Source: Eledone cirrhosa
Lineage: Eukaryota
Direction: 5' to 3'
DNA length: 64,000 nt
Assembly (NCBI GenBank): GCA_964016885.1
Contig: OZ024742.1
Location: forward strand, 133,796,001-133,860,000
Shown here: positions 4,281 through 47,510 of the stretch, one piece after another
Layout of the letters: each line of letters begins with the position of its first letter
Position numbering within the stretch: the stretch's first letter is position 1
The notes under the pieces: generated by a model
Seen by the model: the letters and a program-made list of their open reading frames with translations, nothing else
The model's database searches: none
What the model was told of the DNA's origin: nothing
Translations under genes and position numbers: made by a program

Positions 4281-4465
4281 TGGCTAAATACAATAAATGT
4301 GATCTGAATTTTTCGATAAGTAATAATAATAATCGATTCGTTTGACTTTATGCAAGAGCAAGAATGAGGGGATCATTCTACTGACATGGGCTAATAGAGG
4401 CTGTTTGCATATTTGCATACGGATCGAATATTAATATTAATATTCGAAAATCTCAGATTACACTC
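4281..4465. mobile_element. Short fold-back insertion related to 52700-52870
   Basis: 4281-4345 is the reverse complement of about 52780-52843; 4353-4462 aligns directly with 52712-52827; flanked by (TA)n/(CA)n. Confidence 0.6.
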
Positions 4466-4662
4466 ACACACATACAGACATGTATATATATAGCGACTTG
4501 CTCGTTTTTCAGAGTCCTATATATATATGCAGAGGTTATATTTAATTTGCTGGGATTCAACAAGCTTAAACATGTTTATAACTGATATAAAACACTCAAC
4601 AGGTTAGTGGAGTAAATACACAATATATTAATAAATAGAAACCATATTTATAAAACAATATT

Positions 4663-4728
4663 TATTTTATTATATATATTTCAAGGGCCACCAATGCAAA
4701 TGATGGTGCGCTTTCATCAGAAAAAATA
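4663..4728 (-). ncRNA. Type I hammerhead ribozyme
   Basis: tatttttt CTGATGA aagcgcaccatc..tggtggccctt GAAA tatata TA ataaaata. Confidence 0.75.
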
Positions 4729-5132
4729 CATATTTGTTTTATAAATAAATATTGACATACCCGGAAAAAAGACAACCTTAATGGTTGGAGTTTCCTGGAT
4801 AGCGGAGATAATATGTTATTAAGGGTAATACAAAGTCATGATTGAGTATGCAAATGAGTGTCCGAAAAGTTAAAAAGATAATGGTTTATTTAAATTAAAC
4901 TGTTGAAAAAGAGGATATGTACGGGAGAAGGAAAAGAAAAAAAAGAAAAAGAAAAAGAAGGAGACAGAGAGAAGATGAAAGAAAAAAACGATTATACATA
5001 GTACTGGTGAAGATAGGCAAGAGTGAACGAAGAAATAAGTATTAATGGAAAAATATAGAGCGTAAATATATCTATGTGAAAGAAGAAGTGATAGAAGAAA
5101 TAAGATTAACGTGGAAGAATAATACTTAGAAT

Positions 5133-43510: not shown

Positions 43511-46239
43511 TATGTATATATGTATATATATGTATGCCTGTGTGTGTGTGTGTGTGTGTGGGTGTGTGTAGCGTTCCCGTCTGTAAGTGTGTGCCCATGC
43601 ATGTGCAAATCGTGTATGCATAGTACACACGAATGTCTAGGAATAACATTAATAATGCAAATATCTATCCGATGATATACCATTACAGAAATCTAGAATC
43701 AGCTGTGATACATATTTGCAATAATTGTTCTTTCACTTTACCACTTACTGGTGTTTAATCACTTGTATGCGTTGCCTGCCAACCAAGTAGAAATTTATAC
43801 TAATGTTAACATACCAATTTTAATTTCATCAAGCGTATTTCATTGGTAAACGAGTATCGTCAATGATACATTATTGATATTCAAATATTTTGTCATATTA
43901 TGTCGTATATTGCTTTAGCAGATATCTCTCCCAAATATTGTTAGGCAGTACAAAGATGAAATGTCTGCCCATGTTTCTTTCTTTCTTTGTATGTGTACAT
44001 TGTCAGCAAATGTTTTCTCAGAATTATTATTAAATTCCTTCACTCACAAAAGTATGTTGAATAGAAAAGAGTTCTAATGGTTGTTCCAATTAATATAGGC
44101 AGCAGTGACAATACCATAACAATTCTAATCAACCTTCATTACTAAAGTCCTGATCATCCTCATCCTTGTAATCATGAATATTGGCATCATCGTTATCTTC
44201 ACATAACCCCCACATTACCCACATCATGCTCATCTCAATCTTCATTCATCATTTCATCATACTGTGTATCATACAACAATGATCACATCCCTTTCTATGG
44301 TTGTAACGAATAACTTAATTGGCCTTCGTGGTCAAAGACATCATGAGCACACCATAACAGCAATTATAATGAACATAAAACAAGTGATTATTTCGATGAA
44401 GATAATTTCGGTGATCCCTGAAAAATATGCAATGCATATTAGTAGGACAGGAATGTGAGGTATTCTTACTCGAGATAAATAATCAATTCCTTCATATGTG
44501 TAGGTGTATTGTGTAATAACTTGTACATTTATTGTTTATTTTATAATAATTTATACTTTAATTCATGTTTTATAAAATTAATCTTTATTTTCCATAGAAT
44601 TGCTTTAGAAAAGTTTTGTTCAAACTAGCATGCATTTTTAATATTATATTTATAAAGAATTTTTTTTCCAAAATGCACGCGCGTCCTCTAATATATATAT
44701 TACTATTTATTATCATTACTAGCAGAGGAACTGCCATTCGAGCGGTTTTCTACTAGCATAGTAATGTGCATTTTCGTACTATACGCTAAAACATATGCAT
44801 AAGTTATATGTAAATTGTAAAATAAATTGACAATATCTTATATTTTATATATAACAAAGGAATTGTGGTAAGGAAGCAAATAGACCATAACGCACCGGAG
44901 TACTCAATACTTAGGGTAGTAGAGTGGGAAATAGGAAAAAGTATGACCCCGACGGCAGAGCGCAAGACGTTTCATATATATATATATATATGCTTTGATA
45001 AATAGGTGTTGATCTTAGCGACTGCTTCTCGATAACTAATCTAAAGCCGTTTCATATATATATATATATATATATATATATATATATATATATATACGGG
45101 GTAACAGATTATTGTTATAGGTAGTCCACATAAGTGTAGTCCAGTTGTGGTACTCCGAGTAGTGGATGATATCAACGTTTGGCTCAGTTTGACTCAACAA
45201 GGTGTTTCCATAGTGATGCTGCGAGTACGCGGTAATTTCTATGTTGTAAACACTTGGAGTAATGATAAATCAGGAAAGAAGAGTGACACGGTTTGCGATA
45301 CAAAATAGGTTTTTAATCTCATTGCTGACCATTGTTTCTCTGAACTGGTAGGTCTAGAGATCGCTACCCGCTTGTTTTCACGTCATTTGATAACCAATAC
45401 ATAGTTGTAACCAGTCAATTCATCGGAGCTTGTGAGAATAAAAGGAATATATAGGCATGGCTACTATATATAGTAGTAATGGCATTCAATCAGAACAATA
45501 ACAACAATACTAACAATGCTAGCAATAAATCATTTTAAATAATCACGTCAATCTAAGTGAGGAATATAGTATATCTAAGATTTTAGCGTGTAAAACTAGC
45601 TGAGATGAGGCAGATGTATAAAATTGACATGTAAAAGCTGTCATGGGGTGTATTATATATATAGTGTACAGATAAACCGGTGGCTTTAAACAATGTAGGC
45701 CTGGTGGCCGTAAGAATAATTTATTATCTGACAGATAAAAAATTTATCACTGTAGTGAGGATAGTAATATTTGTGGTGTTAGGTTCAATATTTATGTAGT
45801 CTATATAAGATGAAAATGTTGTCTAGCTTTCTCATCATCAATAACATACATGTATAAGACAACATTAACAGACTAGCAATATAATAGGCAAGTTAATACA
45901 GAGGTTAAGGAGGCAATATATATATATATATATATATATATATATATATATATATATATATATATATATATATATAAAGAGAAAACATGCTGACTACAAT
46001 TATAACAGCAGGACGGTAATGTTCTGCTGTAGTAGTATTTTGAAATGTTCTTTGATTTAGGTTCATTTGTTGAGAGTCAAGGGTGAGGATGTTGTGTTGA
46101 CAGCAGCTGACAAGGGATATATTTATGGGTTGACAAGGTACTGACATACATTATTGTGGTATAGAATTAAGAAGGCAAGAATGTACCTAATGATTATATT
46201 TCTGTGGTGGTTCGTATATATATATATATATATATATTA

Positions 46240-46936
46240 GTTTTGCGAGGTTTTTTATATGAAATCGTGTGTCGAAACAGATATTGTTATATTTGGGGAG
46301 GGTCATATTTGCGTAATATTGCCAGAATTAATAACAGAACACACTCACTGTTTGGTTGGTTTTCGCTTCTCGCTGTCTTTTATATATATATATATCTGCG
46401 ATCTAACTTACTCGGTCCTCAATGTTGCCATTGACTGACCGGCGGTCAAAAATAATACAGATACAATATAGACAAACACATATATATATATAGTTTACAT
46501 AATTTACATAAATCTTTCGTTGCACATCTGCAACATCGTCAGTGGTGTTATATTCATTGTTCCTCCTGTTGTGTTGTATGTCTACGCCATTTTTTTTTTT
46601 TGTTTTTTTGTCAAAAAAAAAAAAAAAAAAAAAAAAATGGCGTAGACATACAACACAACAGGAGGAACAATGAATATAACACCACTGACGATGTTGCAGA
46701 TGTGCAACGAAAGATTTATGTAAATTATGTAAACTATATATATATGTGTTTGTCTATATTGTATCTGTATTATTTTTGACCGCCGGTCAGTCAATGGCAA
46801 CATTGAGGACCGAGTAAGTTAGATCGCAGATATATATATATAAAAAACAGCGAGAAGCGAAAACCAACCAAACAGTGAGTGTGTTCTGTTATTAATTCTG
46901 GCAATATTACGCAAATATGACCCTCCCCAAATATAA
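46240..46936. mobile_element. Near-perfect ~320-bp-arm palindrome (family C relative) with HHRs at 46507-46544 (-) and 46683-46720 (+)
   Basis: Arms meet in a polyT/polyA centre near 46600; ca CTGACGA t gttgca gatg tgcaac GAAA gatt TA tg; tail 46240-46286. Confidence 0.85.
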
Positions 46937-46960
46937 AAATATATATATATATATATATTT

Positions 46961-47510
46961 AAAAGAATAGAGGTGTAACACACGAATTGTAATATATTAG
47001 TAAAAGGAAAAGAACATGCTGACAAATTTTTCCCAGTGAAAAATAGTTTAATTAGGAATAAGTATGTCCTTTTTTCGCCTGATTGAGGCGAAAAAGGACA
47101 CTCTTCGACAAACCTACATTTGGCGCAAAATCAATTTTTAACATTCACGTGACCTCTACCGACCAATCAAAATTGTTTTGACTACAATAATTTTTACAAC
47201 CTGAATTGGCGCGAAACTTATAGTAGTCATTCACGTGACATTCAACAACCAACCAAATCTTAATACCTCTGGAGCCACTTTTTTCACATAAATCAGGTAG
47301 AATTTCCAAAACTGATCAGATTAGAGCAAACATCACGGGCGCTCTATCTCAAAATTATGTTTGAAAAGCATTCATTAGAAATGAGCAACCGATAAAAATT
47401 TAAAACTAAAACTGAATACTAACCAATACTTATTACTCATTTTTACTTATTCCTAATTAAACTATTTTTCACTGGGAAAAATTTGTCAGCTTTTTCTTGT
47501 CCTTTCAATT
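46961..47510 (+). mobile_element. Fold-back insertion with internal 86-bp repeats
   Basis: Arms at about 46998-47063 and 47446-47510; homolog in opposite orientation at 49312-49750. Confidence 0.75.

Follow-up and report, generated by a model that had tools for sequence, protein, structure and literature searches.

A 64,000-nucleotide stretch of the Eledone cirrhosa genome (assembly GCA_964016885.1, contig OZ024742.1, positions 133,796,001 to 133,860,000 of the forward strand; this whole stretch is called here the window) has a GC content of 33% and dense tracts of repeated TA, (TA)n. Along these tracts, one layout recurs: an insertion is made of two copies of the 3' end of an element, oppositely oriented and facing outward, and one of the two runs on into a tail that the other one lacks. 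What kind of element is written into DNA head-to-head and with unequal ends, and how strict is the inequality? In Penelope-like elements (PLEs), truncated inverted copies, one-sided tails and insertion into TA targets have already been described, and the tail has been proposed to originate from endonuclease resolution or from antisense self-priming (PMC8557442, PMC3846280; these and all other papers are cited from excerpts). In the same literature, the origin of the inverted copies and of the one-sided tail is left open (PMC8557442), as are the steps that follow initiation (PMC11167929). The insertions analysed here mostly belong to families with PLE motifs, and one short and one long end were found to be strictly paired in them, which bears on how both ends are made.

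Ends of the insertions and their pairing

The initial annotation had assigned an inverted short arm and a tailed long arm to 19 loci. Self-comparison of the window sequence bears this out for 16 of them, whose outward-facing ends abut TA or AT-rich DNA, while two (37348 and 38960) turned out to be of another nature and one (4281) is too weak to call (Table 1). At the confirmed loci the extension is one-sided, as had been claimed, with tails from 33 to about 137 bp (about 35-130 bp in the earlier estimate).

Genome-wide samples were drawn along contig C1 of the 3.0-Gb assembly for five families, i.e., A, B, C, D and a tandemly repeated 310-bp element, referred to as the retrozyme. Exact matches to the core patterns number 3571 for A and 19,650 for C (both 37-mers), 5263 for B, 2550 for D and 19,086 for a 24-mer of the retrozyme, whose exact end patterns occur 1030 (long) and 1245 (short) times. 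The sample of family A consists of the first 100 of its 3571 matches listed, on C1, which correspond to 74 independent insertions; those of B and D comprise the first 30 matches each, and that of C the first 30 plus 11 loci picked for long spacing, regardless of end type. For the retrozyme, 79 long and 100 short ends within C1:0-217.8 Mb were paired with outward-facing neighbours at a distance of up to 20 kb.

The recurrence of end points within a family, proposed from the window, holds genome-wide in the form of two sharp classes rather than randomly scattered arm ends. Short ends of family A lie at +1 to +14 (55 ends) and long ends at +74 to +79 (57 ends), with two ends (L119, L153) outside either class; in family C they lie at +16 (28 ends) and +72 (25 of 28), and families B and D likewise have two narrow classes. 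When both ends of a head-to-head insertion could be resolved, they were one short and one long in 135 of 135 cases across the five families (A 44/44, B 12/12, C 22/22, D 5/5, retrozyme 52/52), and like pairs were never found, when independent choice of the sites would give about half of them. The raw table for A to D contained 82 short+long pairs and three apparent short+short ones (L087, L103, L113); on inspection, the latter were matches to a diverged internal copy of the pseudo-long terminal repeat (pLTR), the true ends being short+long, and in the final tally L113 is entered once and one doubtful C row (the first L147) is removed. Such a diverged, older pLTR copy also lies inside the family A element of the window (28473-28560, about 1.5 kb inside the 3' end), where it is unused as an end. 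Smaller families (those at 31878, 42737, 47706 and 45097 among them) add a few short+long pairs, together with three odd rows in which one end is shortened or interrupted.

Junctions between families were also seen. In L068 (4250-8519) a D copy and an A copy, and in L061 (8213-8543) a B copy and an A copy, meet head-to-head with no TA between them. They were considered as evidence for two RNAs and set aside, because deletion between neighbouring insertions accounts for them.

Identity of the families

By motif criteria, rather than by a tree, the families can be assigned to PLEs, A and B being of Hydra type, C of Neptune type and D of another clade. The motif list of the Hydra clade includes RWK, DKT, a CxCX5C linker, a GIY-YIG domain without the CCHH pattern, and CxxC plus CxH close to the conserved E and N (PMC8557442). 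Family A has RWK (MRWKA), DKG altered to DKT (SDKTKN) and a reverse transcriptase-like YRDD, followed in the linker and endonuclease (EN) region by CxCX5C (CSCRKPDEC), a GIY-YIG-like VYEAK..YVG without inner cysteines, CSLC and CPH. In family B the RWK/DKT region is too decayed to be read, and translation gives CNCRNK.., CSLC and CKH. A hammerhead-like core in the pLTR and a (TA)n target, both features of the Hydra type, were found by the core-motif scan and in the flanks. In family C, an open reading frame of L163 contains a CIDKKCITC linker, YSIRCTEGQC..YIG and EH..QH, that is, the CX2-5CxxC plus CCHH pattern of the Neptune type; its Pfam match to RVT_1 (E=9e-4) is below the cut-off. Family D matches RVT_1 with E=4e-8 and has a C-terminal GIY-YIG with CCHH and two inner cysteines (YKIECNQCNQYYIG), and by these motifs it is an EN+ PLE of a third type. 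Pfam returned no GIY-YIG match in any family and no match whatever for family A. Rfam returned no hammerhead match, only sub-threshold microRNA (miRNA) matches on fold-backs and TA/CA repeats, the element at 46240 among them with a sub-threshold miRNA precursor score.

The element at 10531 is, by structure, a non-LTR retrozyme with predicted self-cleavage. Its unit of 310 bp contains a type I hammerhead with a palindromic stem III (GTAGTC-CTGANGA-stem II-GAAACGCGTA^GA(T/C)TAC), and it agrees with the known non-coding tandem units of 170-400 bp with a hammerhead in each unit. Animal retrozymes have been described as tandem repeats whose mobility is ascribed to PLEs acting on circular RNA (PMC7229834, bioRxiv 10.64898/2026.07.22.740005), and the likeness to the animal non-LTR type described there comprises the non-coding tandem unit of about 310 bp, the type I hammerhead and the short palindromic stem III. 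Within the window, the retrozyme has no similarity to families A to D (the other PLEs of the genome were outside this comparison).

Other tandem arrays occur in the same genome. Relatives of the family at 9690 form tandem units of 415-470 bp (L091, 178-2500 and 2599-7051; L114, 6768-8073), and a sequence like that at 39848 of the window repeats every 628 bp; both are probably further arrays of retrozyme type, with the 9690 family as a likely second retrozyme.

Priming, template and junctions

How many priming events does an insertion need? In two insertions (L088, L139) the long arm consists of the tail only and does not overlap the short arm in sequence. Furthermore, either arm can be the longer one. 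Of the 53 retrozyme arrays, 50 were parsed, and after the exclusion of six complex junctions 44 simple ones remained, in which the short arm reaches further in 19, the long arm in 23, and both to within 10 bp in 2; in 18 small pairs of family C, the long arm reaches further in 6 and the short arm in 7. Tail-only arms and the free order of arm lengths together require two priming events, and a single priming at the long site followed by fold-back is excluded, since short arms are often the longer ones. The template offers a plausible landing place, as TATA/ATAT is found at both ends of the short site of the retrozyme and at the long sites of A and C, which makes a pairing of 3-4 nt with a TA primer possible. 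Next to the templated ACA, added CA repeats were found at 20 of 40 long ends of A and at none of 40 short ends, and look like initiation stutter. Where the target is not pure TA, clear target site duplications (TSDs) of 14 bp (L047) and 13 bp (L109) are visible; those of family C are longer, inflated by TA slippage.

Both arms, in turn, come from one type of template. The two retrozyme arms share their haplotype in 45 of 45 typed insertions, among 13 haplotypes (shuffle mean 7.9, maximum 17); units are near-identical within an insertion, and six insertions have private variants that are fixed throughout, in every unit on either side of the junction. In 35 of the 44 simple cases there is more than one unit on both sides, with arms of up to 8.4 kb that read through the hammerhead site, and no enrichment of arm ends was detected at the predicted hammerhead cut (2 of 88, 4.8 expected). 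This fits a circular or an uncut multimeric template. In families A to D, the two arms of one insertion are on average 2-3% apart, roughly half of the median distance that separates them from other copies, and have few private variants in common; gene conversion between A arms has left little sign (9 shared against 77 one-arm private variants). In the retrozyme array L322, a block of variants seven units long is repeated, a sign of later tandem amplification.

The arms meet at junctions with an excess of microhomology, a check that had been proposed beforehand: in the retrozyme, at least 2 nt are shared at 21 of 32 filler-free junctions (mean 2.2, null 0.77), and 12 of the 44 junctions hold a filler of 1-18 nt. 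The initial annotation had the two cDNAs joining at variable internal points, which the microhomology supports and which falls short for the short copies of A and C, whose junctions are too often exactly symmetric.

A model that brings these observations together, and to which we give a probability of roughly 0.65, is that a staggered cut in (TA)n would leave two DNA ends which both start reverse transcription on a single RNA, each from its own fixed site, the two sites lying 33-137 nt apart. The PLE endonuclease would nick both target strands, and each 3' end would pair by 3-4 nt at its start site and be extended. A protein dimer on one RNA, with one site per subunit, would explain the exclusion of like pairs. 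The cDNA of the long site would displace that of the short site, or a second lap of the template would be used; the cDNAs would then stop and be joined via 0-6 nt of microhomology or a short filler. In the retrozyme, the template would likely be a 310-nt circle, so that rolling-circle copying from each DNA end would generate a tandem array. Dual priming at two defined sites had been suggested from the window alone; it agrees with all the checks made, i.e., the pairing, the sharp ends, the free order of arm lengths, the tail-only arms, the junction microhomology and the TSDs, while the mechanism is still inferred from the genome sequence of one assembly, and the circular RNA and the active protein are postulated. 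A wider version is tentative and somewhat short of an even chance, namely that PLE integration is obligately two-ended, with a dimer on one RNA, that a circular retrozyme RNA undergoes two opposed rolling-circle reactions, and that some 1000 opposed arrays were each written in one event, with reiterated target copies lengthening the TA tracts.

The TA tracts themselves show two further patterns. At 10 of 48 retrozyme loci (null mean 2.2, maximum 6), the same interruption motif is directly repeated, many times over, on both sides of the insertion (e.g., L300, L302, L322, L345, L354 and L306; in the window, 38734-39284 and 12309-12498); a target overhang could have been copied repeatedly, as a source of long periodic TA tracts. 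In L353 and L357, 10-50 bp of host flank reappear as an inverted copy beyond the TA tract with the element in between, and at 38961-39334 of the window the same is seen without an element; in these cases, a broken TA end may have folded back or switched template.

Alternative explanations

Several observations weigh against coupled priming from both ends. In family A, 29 of the 74 insertions have one end only and another one has a shortened tail; many of the one-ended copies are split by nested insertions, and L062, L074, L079, L104, L117 and others look one-armed. The overall TSD scan is weak (14 of 76, null 7.4, maximum 11). No clear RNA structure common to the tails was found (z from -2.2 to +0.2), so that a conserved stem-loop in the tail is unsupported. 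In four read runs with high depth over the families, no locus-specific junction was recovered, a check that is uninformative. For PAc, the Poseidon element of Anolis, no difference in start site between strands was seen in vitro, and coupling was not tested in the experiments excerpted (PMC11167929). The remaining points concern symmetry: loops of at most 4 nt are found in 16 of 26 short copies of A (shuffle mean 2.4, maximum 9) and in 4 of 18 of C (0.3), L062 ends in an 8-bp hairpin abutting TA, and in L332 a variant of the retrozyme unit is mirrored between the arms.

Do these symmetric cases call for another route? If both ends were primed and most of the second arm were made by snap-back, with one cDNA folding on itself and its back-copy annealing over a long homology to the short cDNA at the opposite end, symmetric junctions with loops of 0-4 nt in A and C would follow, as would the palindromic centres that recur between subfamilies (L029 and L154; L047 and L085), the L062 hairpin, the near-perfect 5-kb palindrome of L077, the correlation between retrozyme arm lengths (rho 0.39, p 0.009) and the mirrored variant of L332; shared haplotypes are compatible with it too. 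The excess of symmetric junctions in short A and C copies means that plain end-joining of two cDNAs is insufficient, and either snap-back synthesis probably contributes there or the palindromes were reworked after insertion. However, families B and D and the retrozyme have no such excess, the junction being symmetric in only 1 of 44 retrozyme insertions; over 44.8 kb of arm overlap, one unit variant is mirrored against about 39 unmirrored (counted regardless of their age, and a few of them stemming from the choice of reference unit), and tail-only arms need no fold-back. As a general route, snap-back is thus unlikely, if well above negligible.

A single self-primed hairpin intermediate, formed for example on an antisense RNA (PMC3846280), cut by the endonuclease at two staggered sites and then integrated, so that the tail is a resolution scar (PMC8557442), would also yield one short and one long end, identical arms and the palindromic junctions of A and C. 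Nevertheless, a fixed stagger predicts that the loop always lies in the same type of arm, and both orders are about equally common; the non-overlapping tail-only arms are left unexplained, the CA stutter and the TATA/ATAT at start sites fit priming, and the tail ends match the starts of reverse transcription in vitro (PMC11167929), all of which makes this origin improbable.

Could the insertions be miniature inverted-repeat transposable elements (MITEs) or fold-back DNA transposons targeting TA repeats? They have inverted arms and TA flanks, five small families (12500, 31878, 42397, 42737, 46961) have no linked parent that codes for reverse transcriptase, and the element at 37348 is indeed a fixed-size, Helitron-like DNA element. 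What speaks for a cut-and-paste origin, namely symmetric terminal inverted repeats, a fixed size and a short fixed TSD, was nonetheless not found in the families: their ends are asymmetric, junctions are copy-specific, long copies code for reverse transcriptase, TSDs measure at least 13 bp, and the arms contain hammerhead-like cores (18 in the window, 1 in the reversed window), leaving a very small chance to this explanation, which stays a candidate for the five small families. Assembly fold-back at TA tracts is just as improbable: no read was seen across a window junction, the arms at 38960 and 26985 are 100% identical and very homogeneous tandem arrays may be polished to identity, but most arms differ by a few percent (usually 2-3%), which argues against fold-back, and an artefact would not yield family-specific one-sided tails, target duplications and junction filler.

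Features of the window

The coordinates are given in Table 1. The elements at 46240 and 4186, formerly counted as family C, belong to a sister family with a different tail.

Table 1. Insertions in the window, with the loci that were excluded or are weak
Feature	Position	Strand	Structure
Family A, near full-length Hydra-type PLE	26986..31687	-	Short end 26986, long end near 31684; 4.36-kb body with internal pLTR piece, inversion junction 31346, inverted 342-bp tailed arm; arms 100% identical across 267 bp
Family A coding region (putative)	28942..31087	-	Two overlapping frames, 29645-31087 and 28942-29739
Family A, smallest insertion	18200..18289	+	10-bp short arm, 2-nt loop, 10-bp arm plus full tail
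Older family A-related fold-back	32131..32448	.	Long end left, short right; 121-bp arms, 13-nt loop; hammerhead-like core in each arm
Family B, decayed Hydra-type PLE	4529..8454	+	Inverted arm and long end left, short end right
Family B, short fold-back	43195..43511	.	Long end left, short end right
Family B-related fold-back	9194..9620	.	Short left, long right; hammerhead-like core; left flank is a GT repeat
Family C fold-back (3' end of Neptune-type PLE)	8477..9001	.	Long end left, short right; hammerhead-like core in either arm
Family C long end	18330..18636	-	One arm only seen
Sister family of C	46238..46938	.	323-bp arms, 8-nt loop, 49-bp tail
Retrozyme insertion	10531..11462	.	2.6 tandem 310-bp units, short end at 10531; opposed arm of 88 bp plus 33-bp tail, ending at 11462
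Type I hammerhead cores per retrozyme unit (predicted)	10666-10690, 10976-11000, 11286-11310	-	
Family D, decayed PLE of another clade	14586..17890	+	Short end left, long end right
Family D long end	22180..23316	-	One arm only seen
Fold-back	9691..10365	.	59-bp tail, hammerhead-like core
Fold-back	12499..13975	.	137-bp tail
Fold-back	31877..32060	.	About 60-bp tail; 3 further loci also short+long
Fold-back	42398..42714	.	115-bp tail; no second pair found for comparing ends
Fold-back	42738..43128	.	77-bp tail; 2 further loci short+long
Fold-back	46959..47509	.	Tail about 33-44 bp; ends recur at two positions elsewhere
Excluded: Helitron-like element	37346..38738	-	Fixed internal inverted copy of own 3' end
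Excluded: inverted duplication of flank	38961..39334	.	50-bp arms around 274-bp TA tract
Weak candidate	4282..4462	.	58-bp arms, 76% identity

The locus at 37348 was rejected as a PLE-type layout because a Helitron-like element of 1.4 kb terminates there with CTAG, the apparent tail being the rest of that element. Non-autonomous Helitrons have a 5' TC, a 3' CTRR and insert between A and T (PMC4067079). Here, the outer end reads CTAG followed by T in 16 of 20 copies and the far end (about 38738) reads A followed by TC in 13 of 19, so that the 5' TC, the 3' CTAG and the target between A and T are shared with Helitrons. A stem of 5-8 bp about 20 nt off the 3' end is a candidate for the short hairpin that precedes the 3' end of Helitrons. 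The element differs from them in this distance and in that its last 180 bp recur inside it as a fixed inverted duplicate. The inner spacing is fixed at about 414 bp in many copies. This family (L231, L237) has 740 exact 24-mer matches and its 82-bp inter-arm loop occurs in both orientations; a SINE-like sequence is inserted in the window copy at about 38057-38250. The second excluded locus, 38960, has two genome matches, both at that very locus, and is single-copy.

Further families inserted in TA lie at 47706-48101, 45097-45915, 49314-49780, 18002-18123 and 14030-14470; the first two form short+long pairs elsewhere, with tails of about 86 and 168 bp, and the element at 18002 has a clear hammerhead-like core. 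Small palindromes lie at 894-1043 and 52384-52672 (73-bp arms with a 4-nt loop and 31-bp arms), the one at 894 having no long TA flanks. An abundant 190-bp repeat, presumably SINE-like, occurs at 395-553, 6959-7068, 38056-38250, 53237-53647, 60459-60627 and 62073-62275.

Relation to known systems and significance

Much of this architecture is shared with described PLEs (PMC8557442, PMC3846280): a head-to-head inverted copy, a tail on one end, insertion in (TA)n, a hammerhead in the pLTR and a variable TSD. The tail described there, however, is optional and measures 30-40 bp, whereas here it is obligatory on exactly one end of two-armed copies and measures 33-137 bp, and the inverted arm here reaches several kb and sometimes exceeds the main arm. 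What is added here to the known PLE architecture is the strict pairing of ends, a template common to both arms and the opposed arrays of the retrozyme. In the literature searched, from which subscription papers, Repbase and preprint supplements fall out of scope, neither strict short+long pairing nor twin priming in PLEs nor opposed retrozyme arrays were found described. A survey of an octopus counts Penelope, MITE and Helitron families, without this structure in the part cited (PMC13282606).

The biochemistry of PAc gives a point of contact. In vitro, both strands were cut and extended, two internal start sites on the RNA bound the tail, and a dimer was modelled (PMC11167929). The model proposed here for the insertions agrees with it in the two internal starts of reverse transcription that bound the tail, the cutting and extension of both strands, the AT-rich target and the predicted dimer; the difference is that the excerpts on PAc neither report coupling of the ends nor model inverted insertions, which are seen here in the genome sequence.

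As to small hammerhead RNAs, a circular RNA has been proposed as a template for more-than-unit copying (PMC4209133), and local amplification by unequal crossover has been discussed for retrozymes (bioRxiv 10.64898/2026.07.22.740005). Unlike the animal retrozymes in those excerpts, the arrays of E. cirrhosa are head-to-head, have ends of PLE type and carry a single haplotype in each insertion, pointing to the birth of an array in one step.

Twin priming is a known behaviour of L1, in which a single RNA is primed from the two ends of the target and microhomology joins the resulting cDNAs, leaving an inversion and a TSD. The second primer site of L1 is variable and the two parts do not overlap, whereas the insertions described here have two fixed sites and arms whose overlap reaches kilobases.

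What do these insertions mean, then, for PLEs and their hosts? With strict pairing and a common template, the models narrow to priming that is coupled between the two ends, which is a direct prediction for the existing in vitro system. The retrozyme arrays provide genomic evidence that a small hammerhead RNA is copied beyond its unit length and that a retroelement can give rise to tandem arrays in a single step. In genomes of this kind, short fold-backs by the tens of thousands are products of PLEs and may be mistaken for MITEs or miRNA hairpins, and it is plausible that short fold-backs of this kind have been misannotated as MITEs.

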